Below, in pieces: positions 2,540 to 55,915 of a DNA stretch of 64,000 nt. Every line of letters starts with the position of its first letter. Position 1 is the first letter of the stretch. The notes beneath the pieces were generated by a model, which did not search any database, was not told the DNA's origin, and was given only the letters and a program-made list of their open reading frames with translations. The position numbers were made by a program, and so were the translations under genes. The DNA comes from Chloroflexota bacterium (lineage in GTDB: Bacteria > Chloroflexota > Anaerolineae > DTLA01), in the NCBI GenBank assembly GCA_014874485.1, contig JADBJK010000011.1:144328-208327 (forward strand). Direction: 5' to 3'.

Positions 2540-3130
2540 CGCGCCCCGCCCGAGGCTGAAGCCCTCGGGCTGGGGGTTGTAGGGACGCAGCATGCTGCGT
2601 TCCTACACACGGCGGGGGTTCAGCCCCGCGCGGCCACGCCCCGCCCGAGGCTGAAGCCATCGGGCTAAAGGAGCAAAGCCCTTCGGGCTGCCTATGGGGC
2701 CCAACATGCTACCCCCAGCCCCAACGGGGCTTCGCCCTTTCAGCGCGGGGGTTCAGCCCCGCGCGGCCACGCGGCGGCCCGAGGCTGAAGCCGTCGGGCT
2801 AAAGGAGCAAAGCCCTTCGGGCTGCCTATGGGGCCCAACATGCTACCCCCAGCCCCGCAGGGGCTTCGCCCCTTTCAGCGCGGGGGTTCAGCCCCGCGCG
2901 GCTTTCGCGCCCTTCGCGCTCCAAACCCCCACGCGCCCCCAGCCCCAACGGGGCTTCGCCCTTTCAGCGCGGGGATTCAGCCCCGCGCGGCCACACCCCG
3001 CCCGAGGCTGAAGCCGTCGGGCTAAAGGAGCAAAGCCCTTCGGGCTGCCTATGGGGCCCAACATGCTACCCCCAGCCCCGCAGGGGCTTTGCCCTTTCAG
3101 CGCGGGGGTTCAGCCCCGCGCAGCCACGCC
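2540..3130. repeat. Composite tandem/dispersed mini-repeat array (family C). Sub-units are 'cccgaggctgaagccNtcgggct' hairpins, 'aaaggagcaaagcccttcgggctgcctatggggcccaacatgctacccccagcccc', and 'ggggcttcgccctttcagcgcgggggttcagccccgcgcggcc'.
   Basis: Sub-units recur at 134-223-bp spacing (e.g. 'ggggcccaacatgctaccccc' at 2698, 2832, 3055). The same sub-units recur at 16190-16330. The overlapping ORFs translate as low-complexity Pro/Arg/Ala. Confidence 0.8.
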
Positions 3131-4545: not shown

Positions 4546-4907
4546 TCCCTATCGCAAGGCGAACGGAACTATCCAGACGCGGGGTCTGACCTTTCGTCCG
4601 TTCGTCGTCGGGTTTCGGATGTGGGCATCGTGCCGATGTTCATGCGAGCGCGTCCATCGGATAGGTTGCCTAACTCTACACCGAAAGGCGGGGATTGTCA
4701 ATTTTGCGCCCGTCCCGCGCGGAATGCGCCCGCCGCTCTGCTCGTTGCAACCCCTCTGCGGTCTCCGCGGTCTCGGCGGTGGACTTGTACTCCGCGCCCT
4801 TGACACTCGCGCCAACCGTCGTCCGCCAGCCGATTCGCAAGCCGTAGCGCGCCGCCTGGCCCCACCGCTTTTGACGCCCCTGCCCTGCTGTGGTATACTG
4901 AAGGCGT

Positions 4908-4983
4908 GGGCCGTTAGCTCAGCATGGCAGAGCACCTGCCTTTTAAGCAGGGTGTCGCGCGTTCGAGTCGCGCACGGCTCACC
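4908..4983 (+). tRNA. tRNA-Lys (anticodon UUU)
   Basis: Cloverleaf folded by hand. Acceptor GGGCCGT/ACGGCTC, D-arm GCTC/GAGC, anticodon stem CCTGC/GCAGG with loop CTTTTAA (anticodon TTT), T-arm GCGCG-TTCGAGT-CGCGC, discriminator A then CC. Confidence 0.9.
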
Positions 4984-5125
4984 TTTTTGTTCCCCAAATC
5001 TTCATCAGACCTTCAGCCCCCCTTCATAATCCCTTCACACTCCTGTGGTATCCTGTCCGCGGAACGGTGAGAGAAACAGACACCTTCCCAAATCAGACAG
5101 AACACGCAAACAGGAGGATTTCAGC

Positions 5126-5563
5126 ATGAAACGGACAGTAGTGATCGGTGTAGCGGTTGTGCTGGCGCTCACGCTGGCGATGGTCATCGCGACGGCGGCC
5201 TTCGCCCAGGGACCCGCAGGGACCCGCGACGGCGTCCGCGATTTCTCAGGCAACGGCAACGGCCACGCCTACGGGTTTGTGGATGCCAACGGCGATGGCG
5301 TGTGCGACAACGCCGGCCAGGGCAACGGCCACGCGTGGGGCTTCGTGGATGAGAACGGCGATGGCGTGAACGACCGCTTCGTGGACGCCGACGGCGATGG
5401 GGTTTGCGACAACGCGGGCCAGGGCGGCATGGGCTACGGGCGCGCGGCTCACAGCGGCTCCAACGGCCAGGGCGCGGGCATGGCTCGGCGCGGCCACGGG
5501 ATGCGCGGCGCGAACTTCGTGGACGCCAACGGCGACGGCATCTGCGACCTGTTGCAGCAGTAG
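5126..5563 (+). CDS. Small secreted protein (145 aa) with N-terminal signal/TM segment and four degenerate Excalibur/TSP3-like Ca-binding repeats 'FVDANGDGVCDN'.
   Basis: RBS 'caggagga' 7 nt before ATG 5126. 'MKRTVVIGVAVVLALTLAMVIATAAFAQG' is signal-like. The repeat D-x-N-G-D-G-x-C-D occurs four times. The ORF-track start at 5045 is rejected (no RBS, non-hydrophobic N-terminus). Confidence 0.7.
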   Translation: MKRTVVIGVAVVLALTLAMVIATAAFAQGPAGTRDGVRDFSGNGNGHAYGFVDANGDGVCDNAGQGNGHAWGFVDENGDGVNDRFVDADGDGVCDNAGQGGMGYGRAAHSGSNGQGAGMARRGHGMRGANFVDANGDGICDLLQQ

Positions 5564-5589
5564 AATCCCTTACAACTGAATACCGCCCA

Positions 5590-5628
5590 GGCGGCGAGAG
5601 AAGGTTTCTCGCCGCCTTTTCTTTTGCA
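5590..5628 (+). terminator. Rho-independent terminator after the small repeat protein gene
   Basis: 'ggcggcgagag-aaggtt-tctcgccgcc' followed by 'ttttctttt'. Confidence 0.6.
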
Positions 5629-5746
5629 CGCGAGACCCCGCTGATGTACAATAGGGTAGGGTCTTGCGCACGCTGCACCTCTCCATGCCTCGCTTGCGTT
5701 TTCAGCAAGGGCACGCGCATCGCGCTGATCAGCACGCACCGTATCT

Positions 5747-7030
5747 GTGCACACGAGGATTCACGACGTGGAACCGGCCAACACGACTTACGCGAATCGC
5801 ACCAACCTGCTCGCATCGCTGCTGCTTGCAGTGGTCGCCGTGGGCATCACACTCCTGGCCCTTCAGCGGCCCTTCGCGTCGCCCGGCTCGCCGCACCCGC
5901 CCACCCCAACCCCAACGCCGACCGCCACGCCCACGCCGACCATGACGCCGACGCCCACGGCCACACCGACGCCCACGCCCACGCCGACCCGCACCCCCAC
6001 GCCCACTCCCACGGCGACGCCGACTCGCACCCCTACGCCCAGCCCGGTGCCGCCGGGCGTCCGCGCCTCCATGCTGGACACCCACACCATCGTCGCCTTC
6101 TACGGCCGGGCCTTCTCGCCCCACGAGCGCATGGACAAGGTCGCCATCCTGGGCAGGCTAGGCTACTACGACAACTTTGACCACTTCTACACCGAGGTCA
6201 TCTCCTACTGCGCCGAGGTGGACGCCGCCAACGGCGACCTGGGCGTGATTCCCGCCATGGACATCATCTTCCAACTGGCGTCGGGAACCAAAGAGAACGG
6301 CGGGGGTACCTACCTCATCAGCGTGCAGGAATACCTGGACGCTACCGGAGGGGGCTCGTTTGAGGAAGATTATGTAAAGCCCGCCGCCGAGAAGGGCGTG
6401 CTCGTGTTCCTGGACAACCAGTTGGGCCTGTCATCGGTGTTGAGCCAGGCCGAGGCCATGCTCCCCTACCTGGAGAAGTACGACAACGTCCACTTCTTCT
6501 TTGACCCCGAGTTCCACGTCTATCCGGAGCAGTACGAGTCGGGCGAGGTAACCATCCCCGGCAGGCCGCTGCCCGGGCGCATTGACGCTGCCGATGTCAA
6601 CGCCGCACTGCGGCGCATCCACCAGTTCATGCAGGAGAAGGGCATCCACCGCGAGGTCATCGTGGGCCTGCACCAGTTTGAGGACCTCAACGTGCCCACC
6701 GATACGCGCACCATGATCGTGGACAAGGCCGACATCGTGATTCCACCCGGCATCACCCTTGTCTTTGACGCCGACGGCTTCAGCCCATCCGAGAACAGCC
6801 AGGAGATCAAACTGTCCAAGTACCGAGGCATCACGGACCCCAAGGCGTACCCGTTCTTCGGCAAGGGCGGCGGCGCGTATCCTGCCATCAAGATTTTCCC
6901 GCCGAACGACTACGTCAGCGTAACGCGCTACGACTATGCCCCGCTGACGCCTCGCCACCTGTTCGGCCTGGAGCCGATCTCCAACGGGCGCTACTTCAGC
7001 CCGCCCCCGGCGCTGATCATCCTCAACTAA
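5747..7030 (+). CDS. Membrane-anchored extracytoplasmic protein. It has an N-terminal TM helix, a ~65-aa Pro/Thr linker and a ~330-aa globular domain, possibly a glycoside-hydrolase-like TIM-barrel domain.
   Basis: 'LLASLLLAVVAVGITLLAL' TM helix, then (TPTP)n linker, then a conserved-looking domain. No motif confidently recognised. The start could alternatively be GTG 5771. Confidence 0.55.
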   Translation: MHTRIHDVEPANTTYANRTNLLASLLLAVVAVGITLLALQRPFASPGSPHPPTPTPTPTATPTPTMTPTPTATPTPTPTPTRTPTPTPTATPTRTPTPSPVPPGVRASMLDTHTIVAFYGRAFSPHERMDKVAILGRLGYYDNFDHFYTEVISYCAEVDAANGDLGVIPAMDIIFQLASGTKENGGGTYLISVQEYLDATGGGSFEEDYVKPAAEKGVLVFLDNQLGLSSVLSQAEAMLPYLEKYDNVHFFFDPEFHVYPEQYESGEVTIPGRPLPGRIDAADVNAALRRIHQFMQEKGIHREVIVGLHQFEDLNVPTDTRTMIVDKADIVIPPGITLVFDADGFSPSENSQEIKLSKYRGITDPKAYPFFGKGGGAYPAIKIFPPNDYVSVTRYDYAPLTPRHLFGLEPISNGRYFSPPPALIILN

Positions 7031-7044
7031 CCCTGGCAAGGCCA

Positions 7045-7300
7045 CAGGACAGGATTCACCGCCGAGACGCAGAGACCGCAAAGGATTTGCACCGCAGAGA
7101 GCACAGAGAACGCAGAGAATTCAAAGAGAACCCTCTGCGCCCTCCGCGTCTCTGCGGTGAACTCAGGAGCCACAGCCGAACGAAGGGCCAAAGATTTGCA
7201 CCGCAGAGAGCACAGAGAACGCAGAGAATTCAAAGAGAACCCTCTGCGCCCTCCGCGTCTCTGCGGCGAGAATCCCTTGCGCAAGAGCAGTGCGGTGCAG
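7045..7300. repeat. Family B mini-repeats ('caccgcagagacgc...gcgtctctgcggtg' inverted-repeat elements). Two 109-bp direct copies at 7084 and 7193 plus a partial copy.
   Basis: Exact duplication 'gatttgcaccgcagagagcacagagaacgcagagaattcaaagagaaccctctgcgccctccgcgtctctgcgg' at 7084 and 7193. The same motif recurs at 14219, 16330, 26035, 27860 and 29225-29440. Confidence 0.8.
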
Positions 7301-8025: not shown

Positions 8026-8129
8026 ATATGCCAACACTCCTTCCCAAATTGCAGAAGCGCATTATATGCGCAATGGCGCGAGGCGTCAAAAATCGTTCGC
8101 CGCCGCCCAGCACTTTACCGCAGGTTTTC

Positions 8130-8740
8130 CTCATGGCGCGTCATGGCGAGGGCGGATAGCGCCCGAAGCAATCCCGCCAGCCTGTCATTCTGAGGCGCGC
8201 AGCGCCGAAGAATCTCGTCAACCCGGATGCTTCGCTTCGCTCAGCATGACAGATGACACTGTCATTCTGAGCGGCGAAGCCGCGAAGAATCTCCGAGCGC
8301 GAGATTGCTTCGCTTCGCTCGCAATGACACGTACCAAATGTCATTGCGAGGGCGCGCAGCGCCCGTAGGGACAATTCATGAATTGTCCCTACTGAGGCGC
8401 GCAGCGCCGAAGAATCTCGTCAACCCGGATGCTTCGCTTCGCTCAGCATGACAGATGACACTGTCATTCTGAGCGGCGAAGCCGCGAAGAATCTCCGAGC
8501 GCGAGATTGCTTCGCTTCGCTCGCAATGACACGTACCAAATGTCATTGCGAGGGCGCGCAGCGCCCGTAGGGACAATTCATGAATTGTCCCTACTGAGGC
8601 GCGCAGCGCCGAAGAATCTCGTCAACCCGGATGCTTCGCTTCGCTCAGCATGACAGATGACACTGTCATTCTGAGCGGCGAAGCCGCGAAGAATCTCGTC
8701 AACCAGATTGCCTCGCTCCGCCCGCAATGACGACGGACAA
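8130..8740. repeat. Family A palindromic repeat array, ~2.8 tandem copies of a 202-bp unit. The unit contains 'gtcattgcgag...ctcgcaatgac' inverted repeats and the 22-bp perfect palindrome 'gggacaattcatgaattgtccc'.
   Basis: Identical ORF translations 8141..8374 and 8376..8576 ('...CHAERSEASGLTRFFGAARL') show near-perfect tandem duplication. The palindrome occurs at ~8371 and ~8571. Confidence 0.85.
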
Positions 8741-8759
8741 TTTCCTCTGCGTTCAACCC

Positions 8760-9623
8760 CTAGAACCCCTCGGGCAGCGCGGCCACGGGCGCAAACGCAA
8801 CGCCCACCAGGCCGGGGCCCGTGTGCGCGCCCAGCACCGGCGCGATGGGGCCTGTCGGCAGCCACTCGCAGGCGAACAGCGAGTCCAGCCGCTCCCGCAA
8901 CTGGGCAGCACCCTCGGGGTTCGCGCCGTGCAGCACCTGCACGCGCAGCGCCGTGCCAGGGGCGTACTGCTCGGCCACCAGGTCTGCAAGCCGCGAAATC
9001 GCGCCGCGGAGCGTGCGGGCAGAGCCGCGCTGGGCGTATATCCCCTGCTCCTTCTCCACGCCGATCAGTGGCTTGATGTTGAGCACCGAACCCAGCAGGC
9101 CCTTCAGGTGGCTGATGCGCCCGCCGTGAATCAGGTAGCGCAGCGTCGCCAGCGTGTACAGCGTATCCGTGGCGGCGCGCACGCGGTCCACCAGCGCCAG
9201 AACGCGCTCCTTCGCCCATCCGGCCTTCACGGCCTTCGCCGCTGCCTCCACCTGCCACCCCAGCGCGCCCGAGAGCGTCTTGCTGTCCACGACGGTAACG
9301 TTGGCCTCGGGCACCATCTGCGCGCCCAGCCGCGCGGCGTTCACCGTCCCGCTCAGCCCCGACGAGATGTGAATGGACAGAATGTCGGGGTCCGACTTCG
9401 CCAGCCTTCGGTACAACTCGGCGAAGACGCCGGGCGAAGGTTGCGACGTGGTCGGGAAGCCGCCGTCGGCCTCCAACAGGGCGTAGAACTCGTCGGGCTG
9501 GATGTCCTCGCCCGAACGATACGATTTGCCGCCCAGCGTGAAGGTCAGCGGTACGAAGTGGATGTCCAAATCCTTCATTTGCTCGGGCGAGAGGTCCATC
9601 CCGCGGTCGGTTACAATTTGCAC
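8760..9623 (-). CDS. DegV family fatty-acid-binding protein
   Basis: 'VQIVTDRGMDLSPEQ...GGKSYRSGEDI...SQPSPGVFAELY...ISSGLSGT' matches the DegV/EDD fold. GTG start 9623 with RBS AAGGAGA 8 nt upstream. The ORF-track extension to 9755 lacks an RBS. Confidence 0.8.
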   Translation of the reverse strand: MQIVTDRGMDLSPEQMKDLDIHFVPLTFTLGGKSYRSGEDIQPDEFYALLEADGGFPTTSQPSPGVFAELYRRLAKSDPDILSIHISSGLSGTVNAARLGAQMVPEANVTVVDSKTLSGALGWQVEAAAKAVKAGWAKERVLALVDRVRAATDTLYTLATLRYLIHGGRISHLKGLLGSVLNIKPLIGVEKEQGIYAQRGSARTLRGAISRLADLVAEQYAPGTALRVQVLHGANPEGAAQLRERLDSLFACEWLPTGPIAPVLGAHTGPGLVGVAFAPVAALPEGF

Positions 9624-9830
9624 AGGAAAATCTCCTTGATCGGTTTTGCAGCAGGGGATTCGCACGGGGGCAATCAAAACCCATCCGGTTCGCTGCCGGA
9701 TGGGCGTCAACTGCTGGTAAGGCCAAGTCTCTGCCGCTGTACTCCCATGATACACCCAAACCGCCGAAACTCAAAATCCGCCGAAGGCAAGAGAGCGGGT
9801 TGTTGACGCCGCGCCGATTCATGCTATACT

Positions 9831-10508
9831 ATGGGCATGGAAAACATCCAGTCCCTGCTCGGAAGCGATAGGCAACCCGACACGCGCACCTACTGGGGCA
9901 AGATCTCCGCCGACGACCTTGCCCGCGCCCTCGTGGCCCACTTCAACACGCCCAACTCGCGCGCCCAGATGACCGGCGACGGCACCCGCATCCTGGTGCA
10001 AATCGCCAACCGCCAGGTGGAGTATTCGGACCCCACCACGGCCCTCACCGTGGGCATCGTGCAGGACTCGGACAGCATCACCGTTACGATGGGGCGGCAG
10101 AAGTGGATCGGCATCGCCGCCGACCTGGCCCGCACCGGCATCATGGCGCTCATCAACCCTTGGTACCTGCTGAACGAACTGGACAACGTGGCGCGCAACG
10201 TGGACTGGCTCAGCCTGCGCGACCAGGTGTGGGCGGTCATTGACCAGTACTGCCAGTCGGTCGGCGGGAGTTTGGGCATCCCCGAGGAACTCAAGCAGGT
10301 GGTGTGCCCGTACTGCGGCGTGGGCAACCCCATCGGCCAGCCCAAGTGCTCGGCGTGCGGCGCGCCCCTGGGCGAATATCAGCCCATCACCTGCCCCAAG
10401 TGCGGCTACCTGCTCCCCTGGAACAAGCGATTCTGCACCCGCTGCGGGGCATCCCTCACCGGCGACAAACCCGCCCAGCGCAGGCCCAAGCGCTCGTCGC
10501 TCATCTAG
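9831..10508 (+). CDS. Hypothetical protein with C-terminal double zinc-ribbon (CPYC...CSAC...CPKC...CTRC)
   Basis: Two CxxC pairs x2 in the last 70 aa. Divergent from degV. The start is either ATG 9831 or 9837. Confidence 0.55.
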   Translation: MGMENIQSLLGSDRQPDTRTYWGKISADDLARALVAHFNTPNSRAQMTGDGTRILVQIANRQVEYSDPTTALTVGIVQDSDSITVTMGRQKWIGIAADLARTGIMALINPWYLLNELDNVARNVDWLSLRDQVWAVIDQYCQSVGGSLGIPEELKQVVCPYCGVGNPIGQPKCSACGAPLGEYQPITCPKCGYLLPWNKRFCTRCGASLTGDKPAQRRPKRSSLI

Positions 10509-10524
10509 TACCGTACCACAGGGA

Positions 10525-10900
10525 TTCTTGATGGTTTGTCATTGCGAGGACGTGCGGCGCCCGTAGGGACAATTCATGAATTGTCCCTACTGAGGCGCGG
10601 AGCGCCGAAGAATCTCGTCAACCGAGATGCTTCGCTTCGCTCAGCATGACAGAGCCATATCGTCATTCTGAGGCGCGGAGCGCCGAAGAATCTCGTCAAC
10701 CGAGATGCTTCGCTTCGCTCAGCATGACAGAGCCATATCGTCATTCTGAGGCGCGGAGCGCCGAAGAATCTCGTCAACCGAGATGCTTCGCTTCGCTCAG
10801 CATGACAGAGCCATATCGTCATTCTGAGGCGCGGAGCGCCGAAGAATCTCGTCAACCGAGATGCTTCGCTTCGCTCGCAATGACAGGTGGGGTGTCATAG
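10525..10900. repeat. Family A repeat: one long unit carrying the 22-bp palindrome, followed by 4 tandem copies of a 78-bp sub-unit 'gtcattctgaggcgcggagcgccgaagaatctcgtcaaccgagatgcttcgcttcgctcagcatgacagagccatatc'.
   Basis: The translation of ORF 10574..10855 repeats a 26-aa unit 4 times (78-nt period). Confidence 0.85.
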
Positions 10901-10946
10901 CGAGGGCGTGGCAACTGGGCAGCCGGGCGTCCGGGGCGGCGTGGGC

Positions 10947-13115
10947 CTACCGGTAGGCAATCACCAGCGCCGGGCCCTTCCCCGCCACATTCCGCGACGC
11001 GAACTCGTACACGTTGCTGGAGCCAGCCGTGTACACCAGGATCAGCCCGTGGTTCGGCGTGCCGGTGGCCCAAGCCTGCACCGCAGAGGTTACGCTCACG
11101 GCCACCCACGCGTTGACAACTCCCAGTGAGGCCGTCCCGTCCGCCGTCGCCTCCACATCCGACGGGTCGGTGGCTCCCGCTCCTGCCCAGGGCACCGCCC
11201 ACGTTACGGTCATCTCCTCCCACGCCCGTTTCAGCCGGTACGCGCTTAGCGTGCCCGTGCTGGTGTTGGAGCGGGCCGACACGTAGAGCCGCAACTCGGC
11301 GCTGACGATGCTGCGGCCCATGATCTCCGCAGGCAGGTTGAACATCAGCAGGGCCTTCTGGACTCCGCCCGTGCGCACCTTGAGAGTGCTGTCGTTGCCG
11401 TGATTGGCAGGCGGGCTATCCCATGCATTGATCCACGAATCCGCGGCGGGCTGAACGGTGAGCGTAACCGGCTCGGGCAGGAGCGCGCGCCAGTCGGTGA
11501 AGACGATGGGGAGCCAGAGCACCCCACGTGCCCCGGGCACCCACGTGGGCGACGGGCCGGGCGTATTCGTGGGACGGCGCGTGGGCGTGGTCGTCGGCGT
11601 GAGCGTTGCTGTAGGCGTGCGGGTAGCGGTGGGCGTCCGCGTCGGTGTGGATGTCGGAGTCGGCGTCGTCGTCGGCGTATGCGTGGGCGTGGGCGACAGG
11701 GGGTAAATGTACGTAACGCCCGCCTGGTCATCGTCGGTCAACGTGCGCTTCTTCGTCTCGCCTTTTCCTGTAAACCCGTACATCGTCTTCTCGGCGTCCG
11801 CGGCCCCCACGAGGCTATCCAAACCGAGCATGAAGCCCATCCCCCACGCCGCGAGACTCTCCACATCGTAACGGTTTGCGCTGCCATCGGTGCCCCACGT
11901 GAACGCCCAATCGTTGAACATGAAATCCGATTCCACGATCTCGTATGGGTTATCGTGAATCCACCAGCGATACCCAGCAGCGAGAAAGCGGTCGGAGATG
12001 AGCGAAGGTGAGTCTGCCCACGAAGCCACGTTCTGGCCATCCTGCGCAAGGCCAACAAGCGTGGTCGTCCCTCCGAAACGGTACTGGAAGTTCGCCGTCG
12101 GGACGCTGCTCCACGTGCTCATCGCACGCCGCACGGCTTCCAGTTCCCCATCGCAGTCGGCGGTGTTGGGATTGATCAGCACGGGCTCCGACATAGGTTG
12201 GGGATACGTACCCTTCGGCCAGCGCCCCCCGCAGAAGCAGTACATCACGTTGAAATCCTTTGTGTTGCTGGTTCCATTCGCGTTCACGACGCGCACAGGG
12301 CCGCTGGACGCTCAGCCCGGCACGCGCACCCGGATGAGCGTGTCGCTCCAGAAGTCCACGCAGCCGGGCACCCAATAGTTGTAACCGCCGAAAAACTCCA
12401 CCCGGCCGGTCCCCTGTACTGCGCCAAAGTTGCTCCCTGAGATCGTAACGAGGGTGGAGTCCATAGCACACCCGATGCCCTCCTCGTCGTAGCGCAGCCG
12501 ATCCCAGTGCGACGCGCCTTTGGTTGGCGAGATGCTGGCAATGGAAGGCGCGGCTGCGGACACCGCCGAGGCTTCCACTTGCGCCTCGCGCCACAACCCA
12601 GCAGGGACACGGATGCCGGGCGCTCCCGCGATGCGCATCAGGAACGTGATCAGCGGCGTAGGTTCAAACCCCTCACGGGACACTTGGCCGTCCGCCAGGT
12701 AGAAGCGGCCCTGAAACCCGCCCACCGTACCGTCGGGCGTGTCGTCCAGGAACAGGAGGACGCGCTGGCCCACGCCGAACGTGGGCATGCCCGACACAGT
12801 GAGGCCCAGGCCGTCCACCTTCCCACCCTGCACCTCAAAAAGGAGCGTGTCCCCCGCCGTCCCCTTCAGCACATGCTCCACGTCCACGGTAACCGTGGTC
12901 AGGATGAGCGTGTGCGCCGGATTCCAATGCGAGCGCAACGCGGATACCGTGCCGACGACCGCCGTCTGACTGAGGCCGGCGATTTCCTGCAAGGACAGCG
13001 CCAGCCCCTGCGCTAGAACCGGATGCGGCAGCGTGAGGAAGATCAGCACAACGAGGACAACTGCGGTGAGGAACCCTTGCCGTGAACGAATCGCCCGGCC
13101 CGCCTGAATCGCCAT
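10947..13115 (-). pseudogene. Large secreted multidomain protein split by a single in-frame TGA at 12312-12314. Domains: signal peptide, IPT/TIG domain, degenerate matrixin-like (metzincin) domain lacking HExxH, Pro/Thr linker, C-terminal DNRLRE-like domain. Likely pseudogene or sequencing error.
   Basis: The 13115 start has RBS AGGAGG. The two ORFs (12312..13415 and 10947..12296) share a frame. The reading '...WSDTLIRVRVPG*ASSGPVRVVNANGTSN' places the stop inside the canonical IPT motif (VxVPxGAxSGPVxV). 'MYGFTGKGETKKRTLTDDDQAGVTYIYP' is a Met-turn-like segment. 'GVQKALLMFNL...AELRLYV' is a DNRLRE-like motif. Confidence 0.6.
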
Positions 13116-14218: not shown

Positions 14219-14446
14219 TCACCGCAGAGACGCGGAGACCGCAGAGGTTCTATCGTTTTTCCCGCGTTCTCTGCGGCCTGCGCGGTGAGTTGACGCTCGC
14301 TCTCCACGTCGCCCGCCGAACTCAATACTGCCTCCCAGCGGGCCATAGAAGGCCTTGCCACCAAGCGGGTCATATCCCTCAAAGACGAAGGTTCGGTCAT
14401 CCCGACGGAACACGCAGATGGCGATGGGGCGGATCGCGTTCATCAC
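14219..14446 (-). pseudogene. N-terminal ~50-aa remnant of a Nudix hydrolase gene. Its 3' part is replaced by a family B mini-repeat at 14219-14292.
   Basis: 'MNAIRPIAICVFRRDDRTFVFEGYDPLGGKAFYGPLGGSIEFG' matches the Nudix strand before the catalytic helix. The GX5EX7REUXEEXGU box is absent. The ORF runs into the repeat 'caccgcagagacgcggagaccgcagag' and stops. Confidence 0.45.
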
Positions 14447-16189: not shown

Positions 16190-16370
16190 ACCCGCGAAGG
16201 GCCGCCCCTTTCGCGCCCTTCGCGCTCCAAACCACCCACACGTCCCCAGCCCCGCAGGGGCTTCGCCCTTTCAGCGCGGGGGTTCAACCCCGCGCGGCCA
16301 TGCCCCAGGGGACGCGCCCGAAATGCCCCGATTGCCCCTCTGCGTTCTCTGTGTCTCCGCGGTGAGGACC
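16190..16370. repeat. Family C and family B mini-repeat copies
   Basis: 'ggggcttcgccctttcagcgcgggggttcaaccccgcgcggcc' and 'ctctgcgttctctgtgtctccgcggtgagg'. Confidence 0.7.
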
Positions 16371-23750: not shown

Positions 23751-23924
23751 GGTGGTATTCCCTCTTCGGTAGGATATGCCCGCAGTGCGAATCGCCGCGG
23801 GTTGGATTTGTGTATTCCTTCACAAACCATTGTACACCGCCCGCGGACCGCTGTCAAAACCGTCGGTTGCCCTTGCAGGGGAGGCAAGGCGCCTCGCGCG
23901 GTATCCGCGAATGGGCGCGAATTC

Positions 23925-24300
23925 GCACGAATATTCAATCCACGAATCGCGCGAATCTGCACGAATGTAACAGCCTCCCTGCCCTGTCATGCTGAGCGAA
24001 GCGAAGCATCAGCGAAGCGAAGCATCTCGGTTGGCGAGATTCTTCGCGGCTGCGCCGCTCAGAATGACAGTATGGCCCTGTCATGCCGAGCGGAGCGAAG
24101 CAAATCCACGAATCGCGCGAATCTGCACGAATGTAACAGCCTCCCTGCCCTGTCATGCTGAGCGAAGCGAAGCATCAGCGAAGCGAAGCATCTCGGTTGG
24201 CGAGATTCTTCGCGGCTGCGCCGCTCAGAATGACAGTATGGCCCTGTCATGCCGAGCGGAGCGAAGCAAATCCACGAATCGCGCGAATCTGCACGAATGC
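23925..24300. repeat. Family A-related repeat: two tandem 166-bp copies
   Basis: ORF 23989..24519 translates to the same 48-aa string twice (period 166 nt). Contains 'gtcatgctgagcgaagcgaagcatc' inverted repeats. Confidence 0.8.
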
Positions 24301-24488
24301 AAAGGTGCCATTCGTGTTCATTCGCGCGGATTCGCGGTTCCATGCCGCGCCGCGATTGCCTCGGGCGCTCCGCCCGCCCGCGCAAGGGCAACTTCCACCC
24401 GCCATCGCAAGACGCGGCAAGCGGCGAAGCACTCTCTGCGCCAGCCGGGTAGTCGCACCAGGCTTTGCAGCAAGTGCCGTTGGCCGCC

Positions 24489-26019: not shown

Positions 26020-26123
26020 GTGCTCCTCCTACATATCTTTGCACCGCAGAGACGCGTTCGGTTGTTCGCACCGCAGAGACGCAGAGCGCACAGAGGGTAT
26101 TCGGTTGTTTGCGGTGAAACTCC

Positions 26124-29224: not shown

Positions 29225-29440
29225 AACGCCTCCTTATTATGCATTCGGTTGTCGTCAACGAATTCACCGCGGAGACGCAAAGGACGCAGAGATTTGCTTG
29301 AATCCTCCGCGGTCTCTGCATTCTCTGCGGTGAGAATCCCTCCACCGCCCCATTCCCCGCAGCGACGCACAGGGCGCAGAGATTTGCTCTGAATCCTCCG
29401 CGGTCTCCGCGCTCTCTGCGGTAAAAACCCCTCCGTTACT
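29225..29440. repeat. Family B mini-repeats, two ~95-bp copies
   Basis: 'ccgcggagacgcaaaggacgcagagatttgc...ccgcggtctctgcattctctgcggtgagaatccc' and a second copy at 29351. Confidence 0.8.
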
Positions 29441-35894: not shown

Positions 35895-36010
35895 AATGCG
35901 GATGTCCTGTCATTGCGAGGAGCACAGCGACGAAGCAATATCGGTAGACCGTTATTCTGGAGCGCGGGGCGCTGAAGAATCTCGTCAACCGAGAGGCTTC
36001 GCTTCGCTCG
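35895..36010. repeat. Family A repeat, single copy
   Basis: 'gtcattgcgaggagcacagcgacgaagcaat...gaagaatctcgtcaaccgagaggcttcgcttcgctcgcaat'. Confidence 0.75.
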
Positions 36011-36151
36011 CAATAAGATTACGGACAATTCCCCCTGCGGTCAAATACACCGCTGCCATTCGGTTGCGATGCGCCTCGCAGGTGCGTCGCAATTGGATAC
36101 CCTGCCTCTGACAGTGCCCATCCAACGTCGGAGCAAGGCTCTGCGGCCCGC

Positions 36152-40926: not shown

Positions 40927-42255
40927 ATGGGCGAGATCATCACCTATCCGGCATTCTGGATCGTGGCCGCGTTGAGCATCGGCATCCCGGTGGTGTTCCT
41001 CGCCGGGGCGCGGTTCTTGGCGGTGCGGCTGGCGGGCCGGTCGCAGGGCGCGGCCGCCGCTGCAGCCGAGGGCATCGTCATCACCGTGCCGCGGGTCCGC
41101 TCGCCCTGGAAGGTGCTGCGCGACCTGGTGCTCATCGGCGTGATGGCGACCGGCACCGCCATCATCCTGGTGCGGTTCATGTTCGGCCTGGGTGCGGTAA
41201 CCAACCTCAGCGACCGGTTCCCGCTGGGGTTCTGGATCGGGTTTGACGTGATGAGCGGCGTCGCGCTGGCCGCGGGTGGGTTCGTCATGGCGGCCACCGT
41301 GCACATCTTCCGCATTCACCGGTTTGAGCCGCTGGTGCGCCCCGCGATCCTCACGGCGTTCCTGGGCTACCTGCTGGTCATCGCCGCGCTCCTGGTGGAC
41401 CTGGGCCGGCCCTACAACGTCTGGCGGCCGCTGGTGCACTGGCAGTACCACTCGGTGCTCTGGGAGGTGGGCGTCTGCGTCGCCACGTACACGACGGTCC
41501 TGTTCTTTGAGTTCCTGCCCGTCATCCTGGAGCGCGTGAACCGGATAGAGGCCATCACAAAGCGCCTGCCGACCGTCGCCTTCTACCGCTGGCTCAAGAA
41601 GGTGTCCATCGTGTTCATCATCCTGGGCGTGGTGCTGTCCACGCTGCACCAGTCTTCGCTCGGCTCCCTGTGGGTCATCGTCCCGCAGAAACTGCACCCG
41701 CTGTGGTACTCGCTGTACCTACCAGTGTTCTTCTGGATGTCGGCGGTGGCGGTCGGGTTCGCCATGACCATCGTGGAGTCCAACCTGAGTTCCCGCGCCT
41801 TCAAGCGGGGGCTGGAGCAGCCCCTGCTGGCCGAACTGGGGCAGATCGCGTCGGTGGTGCTGGCGGTGTACCTGGTGGCGCGCGTCGCGGACATCACCGC
41901 ACGCGGCGCATGGCCTCGCGCCTTTGAGCCGACGCTCCAGGCCGCTTCGTTCTGGGTGGAGATGATCGCGGGCGTGGTTGTCCCCATCATCCTGTTCGCC
42001 GTGCCGTCGCTGCGCCGCAACCCCAAGGTTCTGTTTGCGGGCGCGTCGCTGGTCGTGGCCTTCGGCGTGGCGCTCAACCGCCTGAACGTGTCGTGGATCG
42101 GCCTGTTGTCGTACACGGGCAACATCTACAGCCCGTCGTGGATGGAACTGGTGGTAACCGTTACCCTCCTGGGGTTCGGCGTGCTGGCCTTCTACCTGGC
42201 GGCCAAGTACCTGCCCGTCTTCCCCGAAGAGGGCGCGCACAAGGCCCAAGAGTAG
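40927..42255 (+). CDS. NrfD/PsrC-family integral membrane quinol-interacting subunit
   Basis: 442 aa, ~10 TM helices, NrfD-like. RBS AAGGAGG. Confidence 0.8.
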   Translation: MGEIITYPAFWIVAALSIGIPVVFLAGARFLAVRLAGRSQGAAAAAAEGIVITVPRVRSPWKVLRDLVLIGVMATGTAIILVRFMFGLGAVTNLSDRFPLGFWIGFDVMSGVALAAGGFVMAATVHIFRIHRFEPLVRPAILTAFLGYLLVIAALLVDLGRPYNVWRPLVHWQYHSVLWEVGVCVATYTTVLFFEFLPVILERVNRIEAITKRLPTVAFYRWLKKVSIVFIILGVVLSTLHQSSLGSLWVIVPQKLHPLWYSLYLPVFFWMSAVAVGFAMTIVESNLSSRAFKRGLEQPLLAELGQIASVVLAVYLVARVADITARGAWPRAFEPTLQAASFWVEMIAGVVVPIILFAVPSLRRNPKVLFAGASLVVAFGVALNRLNVSWIGLLSYTGNIYSPSWMELVVTVTLLGFGVLAFYLAAKYLPVFPEEGAHKAQE

Positions 42256-42278
42256 CTGACCATAGGGAAAGTGTCCCG

Positions 42279-42394
42279 TTGTCATTGCGAGCGAAGCGAA
42301 GCAATCCCGCGTTCGGAGATTGCTTCGGGACGCTGCGCGCCCTCGCAATGACACACGATCAAGAATCGCCGTGGCAGAGTACTGGCCCCCGACG
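42279..42394. repeat. Family A repeat copy (upstream flank of the adaptor gene)
   Basis: 'gtcattgcgagcgaagcgaagcaatcccgcgttcggagattgcttcgggacgctgcgcgccctcgcaatgacacacgatcaagaatcgccgtggcagagtactggcc'. Confidence 0.8.
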
Positions 42395-42585: not shown

Positions 42586-44007
42586 ATGCAGAAGAGAACC
42601 ATTTGGATTATCGTCCTGGTCGCCGTGCTCGTCGTGGCGGCCATCTTCTGGGTCAACCGCTGGAATGCGGCCCGCAAGGCCAGCGCCACCGCGCCCCAGA
42701 CGTCCACCGTGCAGCGGGGAAACCTGCAGGCCATCGTGGGGACGTCGGGCACCGTGCGCGCAGCCCAGTCCATGGACCTGACTTTCGGCGTTGCCGGCAC
42801 CGTCGTGGAGATTCTGGTGGCCGAGGGGGACCAGGTCAAAGCAGGGCAGCCGCTGGCCCGCCTGGACACCACGACGCTGGAGGCGCAGGTCGCCAGCGCG
42901 GAACTGTCGCTGCGCCTGGCCGAGAAGAACCTGGAGGACTTGAAGTCGCCGCCCACCGAAGTTGAACTCGCCCAGGCAGAAGCGGCCCTGGCCAGCGCCA
43001 AGGCGGCCTACGAAGCCGCCAAGGCCAAGCCGGTGGAGTGGCAAATCGCCCAGGCCGAGGCCGCGCTGGAAAAGGCACGCAAGACGCTGCAGGAGGCTCA
43101 GGCGGCCTACGATGCCGTCTCGTGGCGTCCGAATATCGCCATGCTCCCGCAGGCCACGCAACTGCAGCAGGCGACCGAAGCCTATCAGACCGCGCTGGAC
43201 AACTATCGCATCGCCATGGCCAGCGTGAGCGACGCCCCCATCAAGAGTGCCTACGCGCAACTCCTCCAGGCCCAGCAAGCCTATGACAAACTCAAGTCCG
43301 GCCCGACCGAGGAGGAACTCCTGAGCGCCGAAAATCAGGTAACCCAGGCGAAACTCGCGCTGGACACCGCGCGCAAGAATCTGGAAAGCGCCACCCTCAG
43401 GGCGCCCTTTGACGGCACCATCACCGCCGTCAACATTATCACGGGCCAGACGGTGGCCGCGAACACGGTCGCCATGTCCATCGCCGACCTGGATCATCTG
43501 CAAATCCAGGCCAACCTGCCCGAGGTGGACGCCGTGCAGGTGAAGGTGGGCCAGCGCGCCGAGATCACCCTGGACGCCCTCTCCACGCAGACGTTGAGCG
43601 GCCAGGTGAGCAAGATCGCGCTCATCGGCACCGTTACCCAGGGCGTGGTCAACTATCCGGTTACCATCAGCCTGGATTCCACCGACCTGCCGGTGAAGCC
43701 GGGCATGACCGCCAGCGTCAGCATCATCGTGGACGAGCGGAAGAACGTCCTCATGGTGCCCAACCGCGCCGTGCGCTCCCAGGGCGGCAACCGAGGGTAC
43801 TACGTGGAGGTCATGGTGGAGGGACAAATCGTACAGGTGCCGGTTACCATCGGCCTGAGCAACGGCTCCATGACCGAGATCACAAGCACCGGCCTGCGCG
43901 AAGGGGACACGGTCGTCGTGTCCAGCACCACAACGACCACCAGCAGCCGTATCCCGGGCGTCGGGGGTGGCTTCTTCGTAGGCGGCCCCGTGGGGCCTAG
44001 GGACTAG
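42586..44007 (+). CDS. Efflux periplasmic adaptor (HlyD/MacA-family membrane fusion protein)
   Basis: N-terminal TM, long coiled-coil (QxAE repeats), and a beta-barrel/MPD C-terminus 'GMTASVSI'. Confidence 0.85.
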   Translation: MQKRTIWIIVLVAVLVVAAIFWVNRWNAARKASATAPQTSTVQRGNLQAIVGTSGTVRAAQSMDLTFGVAGTVVEILVAEGDQVKAGQPLARLDTTTLEAQVASAELSLRLAEKNLEDLKSPPTEVELAQAEAALASAKAAYEAAKAKPVEWQIAQAEAALEKARKTLQEAQAAYDAVSWRPNIAMLPQATQLQQATEAYQTALDNYRIAMASVSDAPIKSAYAQLLQAQQAYDKLKSGPTEEELLSAENQVTQAKLALDTARKNLESATLRAPFDGTITAVNIITGQTVAANTVAMSIADLDHLQIQANLPEVDAVQVKVGQRAEITLDALSTQTLSGQVSKIALIGTVTQGVVNYPVTISLDSTDLPVKPGMTASVSIIVDERKNVLMVPNRAVRSQGGNRGYYVEVMVEGQIVQVPVTIGLSNGSMTEITSTGLREGDTVVVSSTTTTTSSRIPGVGGGFFVGGPVGPRD

Positions 44008-44027
44008 AAGTTGACCACAGAAAAAAA

Positions 44028-44140
44028 GTGCCCGCTGTCATTGCGAGCGAAGCGAAGCAATCCCTCGCTCGGAGATTGCTTCGGGCGCCGCGCCCTCGCA
44101 ATGACACACCATCAAGAATCCCTGTGGCAGAGTACTAGCC
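44028..44140. repeat. Family A repeat copy (downstream flank of the adaptor gene), ~90% identical to 42279-42394
   Basis: 'gtcattgcgagcgaagcgaagcaatccctcgctcggagattgcttcgggcgccgcgccctcgcaatgacacaccatcaagaatccctgtggcagagtactagcc'. Confidence 0.8.
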
Positions 44141-46659: not shown

Positions 46660-46744
46660 GGTTCCACGCCAGGAGCGGCGCATTCCCCGGTGGGTGCGCC
46701 GCTCCCTATCCTCTCCGCCCAGCTTACCTTTGGTCCACAGAGGA

Positions 46745-46890
46745 GATTATCCGCTGTCATTGCGAGCGAAGCATCTCGGTCGCCGAGATTCTTCGGCGCT
46801 GCGCGCCTCAGTAGGGACAATTCATGAATTGTCCCTACGGGCGTTGCGCTCCTCGCAATGACATGCCATCAAGAATCGCCACGGTGAAGC
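46745..46890. repeat. Family A repeat copy carrying the 22-bp palindrome
   Basis: 'gtcattgcgagcgaagcatctcggtcgccgagattcttcggcgctgcgcgcctcagtagggacaattcatgaattgtccctacggg...ctcgcaatgacatgcc'. Confidence 0.8.
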
Positions 46891-46891
46891 A

Positions 46892-47545
46892 CTACGGCTC
46901 AATCAGCCCCTTGCGGATGGCGTATTTGGTCAGTTCAATGCGGTTGTGCAGGTTGAGTTTCTCCATGATGTTGGAACGATGGCGCTCCACAGTCTTGGTG
47001 CTGATGTGCAGCGCCAGGGCAATCTCCTGGGTGGTGTACCCTTCGGCGATAAGGGTGAGCACTTCGCGCTCGCGCTCGGTCAGGCCGTCGTAGGTCTCCT
47101 GCTCACCCCCTTCGCGCACGCGCCGCATGTAGTCTTCCACCAGCGAGCGCGCCACGGTGGGGTACAGGTACACGCCGCCGCTCTGCACCGCGCGCACGGC
47201 CTCGGCCAGGGCCATGGGCGCGGCCTTCTTGGGCACATACCCCGACGCCCCCGCGCTCAAAATCTCAAAGAAGTACTGCTCGTTGTCGTACATGCTGAGC
47301 ACCAGGATGTTGCACTCCGGGTGCTTCTTCTTGATCTGCCGCGTCGCCTCAAACCCGTCCATATCGGGCATGACGATGTCCATCACCACGACGTCGGGCT
47401 TCAGTTCGTCGGCCAGCCGCACGGCCTCCCGACCGTCCCCCGCCTCGCCCACGATTTGCAATTCGGGGTCGGTCTCCAGCAGCATGCGCACGCCCGCACG
47501 GACGATGGCGTGATCATCCACCAACAGGATGCGTATCGGGCTCAT
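46892..47545 (-). CDS. NarL/LuxR-family response regulator
   Basis: 'ILLVDDHAIVRAG...VVVMDIVMPDMDG' is the receiver domain. C-terminal HTH 'GYTTQEIALALHISTKTVERHRSNIMEKL'. Confidence 0.9.
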   Translation of the reverse strand: MSPIRILLVDDHAIVRAGVRMLLETDPELQIVGEAGDGREAVRLADELKPDVVVMDIVMPDMDGFEATRQIKKKHPECNILVLSMYDNEQYFFEILSAGASGYVPKKAAPMALAEAVRAVQSGGVYLYPTVARSLVEDYMRRVREGGEQETYDGLTEREREVLTLIAEGYTTQEIALALHISTKTVERHRSNIMEKLNLHNRIELTKYAIRKGLIEP

Positions 47546-49892: not shown

Positions 49893-50172
49893 AACCGAAT
49901 ACGCGAAGCAACGGCGATGATGGAAACGAGTAGTCGGGCGGAGCCGCCCAGCGAGTCCGGGCCTGGTGCAAGCCGGATGCGCGAACCCCGACGAAAATCC
50001 TTCCGGAGCCGCCAACCGAACGGAGGCAACTCCCAGTAGACTTGGCCGGGGCGCGCCCGTTACAGCGGCGGGGGTATGAACACGTACCCACAGAGCGGAC
50101 AGGCTTGCCTGTCAACCGGGGTGGTACCGCGGGAGTCAGACTCTCGTCCCTATGGGGCGGGAGTTTTCTTTA
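49893..50172 (+). promoter_or_regulatory. T-box riboswitch leader for ileS (tRNA-Ile sensing), with terminator-like hairpin and U-tract
   Basis: Canonical T-box sequence 'GGGTGGTACCGCGG' at 50118-50133. A GA/K-turn-like 'gatgatgg...cgagtag' lies near the 5' end of the leader. Hairpin 'cgtccc-tat-ggggcg' plus 'ggagttttcttt' at 50145-50172. Confidence 0.7.
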
Positions 50173-53200: not shown

Positions 53201-53423
53201 CCAGCGCAAGGACGCAGGCTTCCGGATTGAGGACCACATTCGGGTCTTCTACCGCTGCGGCGCAGAGTTGCAGGCAGTCTTCGCCGAGTTCGGCGACTAC
53301 ATCCGGCAGGAAACGCTGGCCGACGAAATGACAGAGGGCGACGCTCCGCAGGGCGCTCACCTGCAGGAGCACAATCTGGACGGCGAACCCCTGGTCTTGG
53401 GGTTGCTCAGAATAGAAGGGTAG
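50280..53423 (+). CDS. ileS: Isoleucyl-tRNA synthetase (type 2, ~1047 aa)
   Basis: 'PTANGRPHAGH' HIGH motif, 'KMSKHVGN' KMSKS motif, CP1 editing domain. RBS GGAGGA. Confidence 0.95.
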   Translation: MFREVTPQVNFPKMEEGILEFWRAHNVFAKTLELRKDAPRWVFYEGPPTANGRPHAGHVLPRVLKDLFPRYRTMKGYYVLRKGGWDTQGLPVELEVEKELKINSKAEIEAYGVEAFNQKCRESVWKYVKEWEQLTERIAFWVDLENAYITYKTEYIESLWWILKQLWDKGLIYQGYKVVPYCARCGTSLSSHEVSQGYRDVQDPSVFVKFPLRDEPGTYFLVWTTTPWTLPGNVALAVHPHVEYVLVQQGDDKLILAKALLDYALRGEYQVLRSLKAKELIGKHYRPLYTFLPVDKDYAYVVGAEFVNTEEGTGIVHIAPAFGADDLDVGKEYNLPVLMTVDLRGRFVNEVTPWRGMFVKDADPLITDDLKARGLLYRAGKYEHSYPFCWRCHQPLLYYAKTTWYIETTKVRDQMLATNEQINWYPEHIKHGRFGNWLETNVDWALGRERYWGTPLPIWECQDCGHRDCIGSLAELSEKAGRDLSGLDPHRPFVDAVVLKCPNCGGQMRRIPEVADAWFDSGSMPVAQWHYPFENQDVFKEQFPADFICEAIDQTRGWFYTLHAVATMLFNSPAYKNCLVTEFGTDEKGAKMSKHVGNVVDPWPILNEQGADALRWYTYSVAAPWYPRRFGNELVRETLRRFLLTVWNTYSFFVTYARIDNFNPMEHHMPVSKRSELDRWVLSELNLLVERVDTSLDKYDVTGATRAIEAFVDGLSNWYVRRSRRRFWKSGEDTDKVAAYLTLYECLVTLAKLMAPFTPFLSEEMYQNLVRSVDSGAPLSVHLCDFPVADRAAIDNALVSDVQLVRQVVSLGHAARNAANLKVRQPLAKVVVKPRDEAGRAVVERMAAVITDELNVKALEVVAQADDLVRYEIGLLPNVLGKKHGALFPKLRAAVAALPAADLARELQAGKSVRVPVDGQEIELLPEEAEVRVHSAEGFSAAEENGLIVAVSTALTEALVREGLAREVVRRIQTQRKDAGFRIEDHIRVFYRCGAELQAVFAEFGDYIRQETLADEMTEGDAPQGAHLQEHNLDGEPLVLGLLRIEG

Positions 53424-55455: not shown

Positions 55456-55479
55456 GCAAGGCACGACTACTTTGCCGTA

Positions 55480-55905: not shown

Positions 55906-55915
55906 TAGTCAACCA

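Follow-up and report, generated by a model that had tools for sequence, protein, structure and literature searches.

The 64,000-nucleotide stretch shown above, referred to here as the window, comes from the metagenome-assembled genome of a Chloroflexota bacterium, assigned by protein matches and related contigs to the class Anaerolineae, and carries ordinary housekeeping genes at 66.5% GC, between which lies a family of palindromic repeats that we call family A. A profile made from five simple elements finds this family at exactly eight loci, numbered 1 to 8 in window order (Table 1), which together take up about 2.45 kb or 3.8% of the window; all eight are intergenic on a gene map based on GC content at third codon positions and Pfam annotation. 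The core motif GTCATTGCGAG occurs 22 times in the window with at most one mismatch, versus 1.4 occurrences expected, and a 22-bp palindrome recurs exactly five times, starting at 8368, 8570, 10566, 46814 and 55525, with none expected by chance. A sequence-only reading of the window had described at least nine loci, tandem arrays of period 202, 78 and 166 bp, and the 22-bp palindrome. The repeat family is real and Tandem Repeats Finder recovers all three arrays, but the profile yields eight loci, the number that reading itself listed, with no ninth, and the palindrome, although a perfect dyad, extends to 28 bp with a GTA...TAC frame. We argue here that family A is very probably lineage-restricted, non-autonomous mobile DNA of Anaerolineae, made of nested hairpin modules.

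When all copies are aligned on the hairpin head, with simple copies extracted separately, family A resolves into three nested layers: a shell like that of a miniature inverted-repeat transposable element (MITE), a core doublet resembling repetitive extragenic palindromes (REPs), and further hairpins at the tip. Simple elements measure 133-135 bp (loci 5 and 6, and copies in contigs L221 and L228) and follow the plan TA, 8 nt, CCACAGGG, about 12 nt, hairpin, about 12 nt, CCCTGTGG, 8 nt, TA. The left (L) flank, TAGTACTCTGCCACAGGGATTCTTGATGGTG, and the right (R) flank, TAGTGGTTGACCACAGGGGAAATTGTCCGC, differ in their interiors and have TAGTnnTnnnCCACAGGG in common, forming imperfect inverted ends; both ends read TAGTnnTnnnCCACAG(G/A)G and pair in the predicted fold, and at most ends the TA sits 10 nt outside CCACAG. 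The simple element is predicted to fold as a single long hairpin as DNA (-29.9 kcal/mol, z -5.3), and its predicted RNA fold reaches -51.3 kcal/mol (z -5.5), with z -14 for array RNA.

On its left side the core reads GTCATTGCGAG, then either CGAAGC or a GC-rich mini-hairpin of 12-17 nt, then GAAGCAAT, CCNNN and the loop; on its right side it reads NNNGG, ATTGCTTC, the other of CGAAGC and mini-hairpin, and CTCGCAATGAC. The core is a head-to-head doublet of REP-like arms of the form (C/T)GTC-ATTGC...GCAAT-CC. Across 44 distinct doublets from the window and unrelated contigs, one short arm almost always accompanies one long arm that carries the mini-hairpin, and the five apical base pairs covary, a mean of 3.52 out of five being complementary versus 2.58 after shuffling (maximum 3.11 in 1000 shuffles). 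Three modules occupy the apical loop: a type-B hairpin (GTCATTCTGAG...CTCAGCATGAC), the 28-bp palindrome, which we call P, and the palindrome CGACGCACCTCGGAGGTGCGTCG. In L053 (2928-3131) and L228 (3826-4040) a type-B hairpin lies in the loop of an intact outer hairpin. The CGACGCACCTCGGAGGTGCGTCG palindrome is nested in family A composites and also stands alone, and it is found in metagenome contigs L220, L223 and L225 as well. At locus 3 the hairpins are nested in a separate inverted-repeat element of CACGAAT/ATTCGCG type (23890-24340), part of which is taken in by the 166-bp tandem duplication.

The mobility of family A is established by empty and filled sites. We compared the window with contigs that share its gene order, taken from relatives whose proteins are 86-96% identical and retrieved via two flanking proteins. 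Empty sites are present in these relatives at six of the eight loci (1, 4, 5, 6, 7 and 8), and family A is absent from their contigs over the region matching 32-54 kb of the window. These sites bear out the earlier suggestion of a mobile, MITE/REP-like family. The further proposal that the repeats shape operon boundaries is not supported, as relatives without the elements keep identical gene order and orientation. In the efflux operon, two of the relatives have one additional gene, for a PMT_2 glycosyltransferase, placed between ABC and FtsX (L100 12241-15045, L101 4914-7718), which the window and the other relatives are without.

The junctions of these insertions are informative about the target. 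Locus 6 reads gggaCTAG[element]gtaCTAGccc; locus 8 reads cgacTA[element]ccacTAcatc versus an empty gcCTAcacc; locus 7 reads gctTA[element]gcacTAcgg versus gaCTAtgg; and locus 5 reads gagTAG[element]tacTGGcccc versus cacTAGcccc. Loci 6, 7 and 8 thus have TA on either side versus a single TA in the relatives, and at loci 1 and 5 one side has TA and the other TG. The target is thus a TA that ends up on both sides of the element and belongs to a TAG stop codon, or to CTA for an opposite-strand gene; the element's own first base behind this TA is G, which rebuilds the stop. Automated scanning of the window together with L053 and six metagenome contigs located 21 element ends, 7 of which have as their terminal TAG the in-frame stop of an open reading frame (ORF) of at least 100 aa; inspection by eye added three more such ends, at 8760, 42253 and 55916. 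A rebuilt stop would explain why insertions are tolerated and persist in a GC-rich genome in which TA is scarce outside stops.

At locus 1, three states of the same site can be compared. In L231 (GCA_036172365.1), whose DegV is 90.9% identical to that of the window, the site is empty: in the 82-bp spacer, ggttcTAG is followed by 18 nt and then by the conserved promoter-like TTGACG-17-TATAAT of the ribosomal protein L25 gene. In L228 (GCA_029907165.1; DegV 95.5%) a single element of 135 bp occupies the site, its R flank lying on the TAG, and in the window (DegV 100%) the site holds a 653-bp array. The window and L228 have the outer flanks, the arms and the decayed right TA (TG) in common, and the extra ~590 bp in the window lies in the apical loop, where hybrid A/B hairpins and P units recur with a 202-bp period. 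Copies are 97-100% identical inside arrays versus ~60-90% between loci, which indicates that the arrays are recent. Together with the passage from empty site to one element to array at locus 1, this copy identity upholds the earlier view of recent array growth by tandem duplication. Metagenome contig L220 carries, at another genomic location, a composite like that of locus 8, which combines a P unit with a CGACGCACC... palindrome and is ~90% identical over 194 nt, so composites can also move or be copied as units. The promoter-like site, near-consensus with 11/12 matches, lies directly upstream of the L25 gene and is conserved in L228 and L231; the repeat array stops just short of it.

Are the hairpins kept for what they do in RNA? 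They could be selected cis-acting elements of 3' untranslated regions, such as terminators, mRNA stabilisers or RNase III sites, that are repeated for their function. The loci all lie between genes, most of them against a gene 3' end, the predicted RNA folding is very strong for single element and array alike, and effects on mRNA stability are known for REPs and for Correia elements (PMC2229807, PMC3733652). Against this, close relatives have the same genes in the same order without elements at the same sites, the elements stand in either orientation relative to neighbouring genes (locus 4 lies upstream of one), and the modules turn up within phage genes and in phyla that are unrelated. The hairpins have no T-tract behind them, no intrinsic terminator (GC-rich hairpin plus T run) was found inside the arrays, and terminator-like sites between 7900 and 11100 are not enriched (4 versus 2.4 expected from shuffles). 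Rfam has no match for the repeats: the sole families above the gathering threshold in the window are a T-box leader and a tRNA. Selected RNA function is therefore decidedly unlikely as the primary explanation; a secondary, exapted effect on transcripts, with any influence on mRNA ends arising as a by-product, is possible.

Other identities were also considered. A CRISPR reading was rejected, there being no unique spacers and no cas genes. A coding reading was rejected as well: the translated frames contain stops, as do both of those translated at locus 2, and the genes on either side have homologues that stop short of the repeats. With all loci intergenic, the repeats are non-coding. A phmmer search with the translated simple element against 1.84 billion proteins returned only two spurious repeat ORFs, and a search of the literature by sequence and translated peptide returned nothing relevant.

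The core arms resemble a known class of repeats. CGTC-tagged REPs carry a terminal CGTC or TGTC, have AT in the first positions of the stem, bear a CCA-like tail and pair as head-to-head dimers (PMC3733652); their stems are 8-9 bp and their loops 4-5 nt, they fall into four families, CGTC-1 to CGTC-4, and no dedicated transposase was found for them (Di Nocera et al. 2013, PMC3733652). In the 44 distinct doublets the arms read (C/T)GTC-AT TGC...GCA AT-CC(A/C) with the tags outward, and family A shares with CGTC REPs the (C/T)GTC start, the AT...AT stem ends, the CC(A) tail, head-to-head pairing and a cross-phylum distribution. It differs from them in that only ATTGC and GCAAT pair, giving a 5-bp stem around an interior of 12-18 nt, and in the pairing of a short with a long arm (PMC3733652). 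Because these stem and loop sizes do not fit, we term the arms CGTC-like rather than members of CGTC-1 to CGTC-4. Chloroflexota is not among the phyla given for CGTC repeats (PMC3733652).

Arm and shell are distributed differently. A 26-nt arm, GTCATTGCGAGCGAAGCGAAGCAATC, is found exactly in 105 stretches of viral contigs of 35-71% GC without the flanks of the window, so the core arm is also a module with its own distribution. Among the clusters of ORFs beside the arm at these 105 viral loci, those inspected are phage-structural-like, with no transposase apparent. The exact 19-mer of the L flank, which stands here for the shell, is by contrast rare: it has seven metagenome matches, six of which are family A copies from one sequencing project, and recurs in a close relative (L053, L228). 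Four matches to the L-flank pattern in viral contigs all lie inside genes and were judged to be chance. Heptamer-type ends similar to the CACCGCAGAGA/GCAGAG units of the window flank the GTCATTGCGAG hairpin in the unrelated viral contigs L130 and L168.

The palindrome P is a module of its own. In a collection of one genome per species, with hosts taken from record titles, at least 98 stretches contain the exact 22-mer; they span more than 10 phyla, and their flanking contexts are unrelated. Among the matches listed, hosts are mostly Cyanobacteria, with others in Roizmanbacteria, Ignavibacteria, Balneola, Electronema and other Desulfobulbaceae (cable bacteria), Gammaproteobacteria, Nitrospirae, KSB1, Zixibacteria, WOR-3, Desulfosporosinus and Anaerolineae, and the full GTA...TAC frame is present in 63 of 99 distinct copies. 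Some copies form the tip of a longer host hairpin, and in Nostocales P occurs nested inside other repeats. The small dispersed repeats (SDR) of Nostoc, reportedly described by Elhai et al. in 2008, are said to be very short palindromic modules nested in cyanobacterial repeats and MITEs.

P is also tied to a transposase family. It reads GTAG-GG...CC-CTAC, with the GT[AG]G tetranucleotide typical of REP-associated tyrosine transposases (RAYTs) present 5' of the hairpin foot, and unbiased clustering of the ORFs that neighbour it at 98 loci gave one informative family, a RAYT-like Y1 transposase. A RAYT-like gene of Electronema L083 has P, 22 nt and GTAGGGGCGAAAAATTTTTCGCCCCTAC on either side, a REP-flanked arrangement of the kind called a REPtron, and in L028, also Electronema, P lies 2 nt past the end of a RAYT-like reading frame. 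In Roizmanbacteria L063 P sits in-frame within a RAYT-like gene, just after the HUH motif, where it is read VGTIHELSLQ; the protein matches Pfam Y1_Tnp, and its best NCBIfam match, REP_Tyr_transpos ('REP-associated tyrosine transposase'), falls below cutoff. Among the best 120 of 1973 homologues of this protein, 104 have the NH[IFV]H, WQ and Y...NP motifs, and translated GTAGGG...CCCTAC palindromes fill the loop after HUH, in many as VGTIHELSLQ. The P-flanked gene of L083 (Candidatus Electronema halotolerans, 4560-6600) is interrupted in its turn: immediately behind its HUH motif lies an insertion of ~1.3 kb that has a long opposite-strand ORF and is apparently an insertion sequence (IS). The genome holds several RAYT-like copies, which is unusual, as RAYTs typically occur in one copy per genome.

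A transposase gene with in-frame REPs is a published arrangement. Subclass 2.4 of the TnpA_REP proteins, scattered across phyla, is associated with 'double-foot' REPs, defined by a 5' GT[AG]G and a 3' C[TC]AC, with three G-C pairs at the stem foot and in-frame REPs in the gene (PMC6006769). A REP inside its own transposase gene was accordingly rejected as a novelty, having been published in 2018 (PMC6006769). P shares with these REPs the 5' GTAG and 3' CTAC and the three foot G-C pairs (PMC6006769), as well as its place beside RAYT-like genes in Electronema and in-frame between the motifs HuH and Y in Roizmanbacteria; unlike them, P in the window sits inside another repeat family with no cognate gene in the window. 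P is an independent, cross-phylum double-foot REP of GTAG type, a known kind, that is nested into family A, and not a part of family A as first described. The R flank in two window copies (8735-8743, 36018-36026) contains GGACAATTC, a half-site of P, and an R-flank copy in L053 (7300-7320) has GGGCAATTT, which differs from it by one mismatch; the likeness may be fortuitous or may reflect shared protein recognition.

The palindrome had also been called a protein-binding site, and a perfect dyad of operator-typical size would suit a dimeric transcription factor that binds the duplex and regulates adjacent genes. We consider such an operator very improbable. P is embedded in repeat units and not placed at promoters, all five window copies lie downstream of gene ends or between convergent ones, and the identical 28-mer stands beside unrelated genes in more than 10 phyla, where it flanks and is inserted in RAYT-like genes and fits the published definition of a double-foot REP (PMC6006769). 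A recognition site remains plausible; a duplex operator is most likely the wrong form of it, and P is most likely recognised as a single-strand hairpin.

How does family A compare with known classes of mobile repeats? It is less than 200 bp long, non-coding, with inverted ends and TA termini with target duplication, as expected of a MITE. Bacterial MITEs with TA termini include Correia/NEMIS of Neisseria and RUP of S. pneumoniae, which is linked to IS630-Spn1 and hence to an IS630-type transposase (PMC2229807). Family A is like these elements in being ~100-200 bp, non-coding and mostly intergenic, with terminal inverted repeats, TA termini, target duplication, a long stem-loop and filled and empty sites between relatives (PMC2229807). 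It is unlike Correia and RUP in that its inverted ends match only partly, its core is a REP doublet rather than a deleted IS, and no parent IS was found in the window, related contigs or metagenome matches; it also lands on stop codons and rebuilds them, and it grows internally into arrays. Bacterial interspersed mosaic elements (BIMEs) and REPINs offer the other comparison. Like them, family A has inverted REP doublets as hairpins, intergenic mosaic clusters and tandem arrays, whereas its modules are identical across phyla and its shell has a TA duplication (PMC3116915). REPIN-RAYT systems are described as species-specific and vertically inherited, and BIMEs belong to enterobacteria and pseudomonads (PMC3116915). 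Family A is a new mix of already known repeat types, not a new kind of system.

The enzyme behind these movements is a separate matter. The sequence-only reading had suggested a link to IS200/IS605 elements of TnpB type. Derivatives of such elements (PATE) would have asymmetric ends with subterminal hairpins, neither inverted ends nor a duplication, and tnpA/tnpB genes with matching ends. Family A has inverted ends and a TA duplication; the window and related contigs yielded neither a Y1 transposase nor TnpB, no RAYT-like ORF either, and no parent IS with the same inverted ends was found there or in the seven metagenome matches. This origin is not supported. A broader proposal is that the whole element, including its TA/TAG junctions, was moved by a single-strand HUH enzyme of IS200/IS605 or RAYT type, inserting 3' of a TAG-containing target, so that what looks like a TA duplication would consist of the target and a similar cleavage site at the right end, in place of a true duplication by a DDE transposase. 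Such a route would suit a core of REP-like arms with a RAYT-type REP nested inside, ends that both consist of TAG and ~30 nt up to the hairpin foot, inverted-end tips that match poorly, and insertion into hairpin tips, which is what enzymes acting on single-stranded hairpins would be expected to produce; moreover, no transposase is known for the CGTC REPs to which the arms bear a resemblance (PMC3733652). We nevertheless regard it as doubtful, though a serious rival. No tnpA, tnpB or RAYT lies near any family A copy searched, and the GTCATTGCGAG arms carry (C/T)GTC and not the GT[AG]G guide needed by known RAYTs (PMC6006769). The ends are symmetric inverted repeats (CCACAGGG/CCCTGTGG), in contrast to the asymmetric ends of IS200/IS605, and TA-flanked bacterial MITEs are classically linked to IS630-type DDE enzymes (PMC2229807).

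We therefore favour family A as lineage-restricted, non-autonomous mobile DNA in an Anaerolineae genome, and suggest how it may arise. A basic 133-135 bp unit would insert at a TA, usually, in this 66% GC genome, that of a TAG stop, and the G that follows TA in the element would restore the stop codon, so that the insertion may be tolerated. The element would then grow from its tip, as new hairpin units enter the apical loop, and blocks of hairpins would be amplified by tandem duplication, presumably through slippage or unequal recombination, to give the periods of 78, 166 and 202 bp. The shell may behave like classical TA-flanked bacterial MITEs (PMC2229807). P would be handled by a TnpA_REP of subclass 2.4 acting on single-stranded hairpins; RAYT-like HUH tyrosine transposases are known to cut and rejoin single-stranded REP hairpins.

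Several observations weigh against this reconstruction. No transposase of any kind is present in the window or ~150 kb of related contigs, no autonomous copy occurs among the seven metagenome L-flank matches, and the link between P and RAYT-like genes is seen in other phyla only. The TA duplication rests on four clean filled/empty comparisons, with one TA decayed to TG at two loci, and the extreme tips of the inverted ends match poorly. P at 55522 replaces a same-length stretch seen at 55723 and is not a clean insertion. The five simple copies show no covariation, having too little variation to inform. Metagenome assemblies break at repeats, so the relatives' contigs are biased towards repeat-free versions.

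The window holds further features, listed with family A in Table 1. The T-box leader lies upstream of a tRNA-synt_1 (class I aminoacyl-tRNA synthetase) gene that is probably an isoleucyl-tRNA synthetase. Another GC-rich palindromic family, CCCCAGCCCCAACGGGGCTTCGCCCTTTCAGCGCGGGGGTTCAGCCCCGCGCGG, also forms tandem arrays, and heptamer-like CACCGCAGAGA/GCAGAG repeats recur at four sites. Low-complexity tracts lie within long ORFs, one of which encodes a CBM96/peptidase-like protein.

Table 1. Family A loci and other features of the window. Array periods, copy numbers and matches are from Tandem Repeats Finder; spacers are intergenic distances.
Feature	Position	Profile extent	Strand	Organisation and neighbours	Same site in relatives
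Locus 1, composite	8108-8762	8109-8761	-	Between DegV (8763-9755, -) and ribosomal protein L25 (7372-8034, -) genes; minus-strand order: R flank 8732-8762 starting on DegV TAG stop, outer short arm, ~590 bp of nested hairpins including the 202-bp unit (array 8190-8731, period 202, 2.7 copies, 97% matches), outer long arm, L flank 8108-8139, L25 promoter-like site	Empty in L231, one element in L228
L25 promoter-like site	8089-8061		-	TTGACG-17-TATAAT	Conserved in L228 and L231
Locus 2, composite	10506-10905	10507-10885	+	L flank starting on TAG stop of DZR zinc-ribbon gene, long arm, P, four tandem 78-bp type-B hairpins (array 10590-10886, period 78, 3.8 copies, 99% matches), degenerate arm at 10894	Unrelated sequence after same stop codon in L228 and L231
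Locus 3	23937-24299	23985-24235	+	Type-B hairpins (GTCATGCTGAG...CTCAGAATGAC) and half arm; array 23937-24299, period 166, 2.2 copies, 100% matches	
Locus 4	35906-36048	35901-36048	-	R flank only; on the left side the hairpin abuts the conserved Peptidase_M55 leader; upstream of Peptidase_M55 gene, downstream of Usp gene	M55/Usp spacer 271 bp in window, ~40-46 bp in L103 and L214
Locus 5, simple, ~134 bp	42253-42386	42251-42383	+	R flank on NrfD TAG stop; L flank ends TGG, a decayed TA	NrfD/HlyD spacer ~115 bp longer in window; empty in L100, L103, L105, L107, L213
Locus 6, simple, 134 bp	44005-44138	44006-44136	+	Between HlyD-like adaptor and ABC ATPase genes; CTAG on either side, first TAG the stop of the HlyD-like adaptor	HlyD/ABC spacer 134 bp in window, 34-55 bp in seven related contigs, empty
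Locus 7, carries P	46725-46894	46733-46893	+	TA on either side; right TA part of the stop (CTA on plus strand) of minus-strand response-regulator gene	DUF5666/response-regulator spacer 232 bp in window, 72-85 bp in relatives; empty in L100, L103, L105, L107, L213
Locus 8, composite	55465-55918	55468-55918	+	L flank, two ~200-bp units, R flank; one unit with P, the other with an ordinary stretch of equal length, CGACGCACCTCGGAGGTGCGTCG palindrome in both; R flank ends on stop of minus-strand arrestin-like gene	AP-endonuclease/arrestin spacer 460 bp in window, 13 bp in L214, empty
P, 28 bp, GTAGGGACAATTCATGAATTGTCCCTAC	8365-8392, 8567-8594, 10563-10590, 46811-46838, 55522-55549			Frame GTG...CAC instead of GTA...TAC at 55522-55549	
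CGACGCACCTCGGAGGTGCGTCG palindrome	2448-2489, 36053-36094, 55611-55652, 55811-55852				
CCCCAGCCCCAACGGGGCTTCGCCCTTTCAGCGCGGGGGTTCAGCCCCGCGCGG palindromic family	2612-3129, 16230-16306			Tandem arrays, periods 134 and 223 bp	
CACCGCAGAGA/GCAGAG repeats	7057-7121, 14220-14260, 26069-26109, 29262-29434				
Low-complexity tracts	5880-6047, 11551-11719, 57748-57875			Periods 6-18 nt, GCGTGG/CGCCCA units	
tRNA gene	4908-4981				
T-box leader	49908-50154				
tRNA-synt_1 gene	50280-53423				

These findings have practical and biological consequences. The repeats fragment metagenome assemblies, the short-read Logan contigs L099 and L227 of the source organism ending inside repeat flanks, and they yield spurious ORFs such as VIASEAKQS... 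and VGTIHELSLQ. They add Chloroflexota (Anaerolineae) to the hosts of CGTC-like REP doublets, and they reveal two short modules that are sequence-identical across many phyla, which bears on what moves CGTC REPs. It is rather unlikely that the shell and the GTCATTGCGAG doublet owe their movement to a class of enzymes so far without a link to REPs, one that reads hairpin tips and TA-containing stops. If they did, the pairing of a short with a long arm could be a signal for strand choice, comparable to the extrahelical bases of integron attC sites, and the series of empty site, single element and array would be a natural system for finding that enzyme. The origin of BIME-like clusters has so far been mostly inferred. 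Family A provides a clean natural series from a single hairpin insertion to a mosaic array that grows from its own tip, and it suggests a low-cost route into a GC-rich, gene-dense genome: to land on the TA of a stop codon and bring the base that rebuilds the stop.

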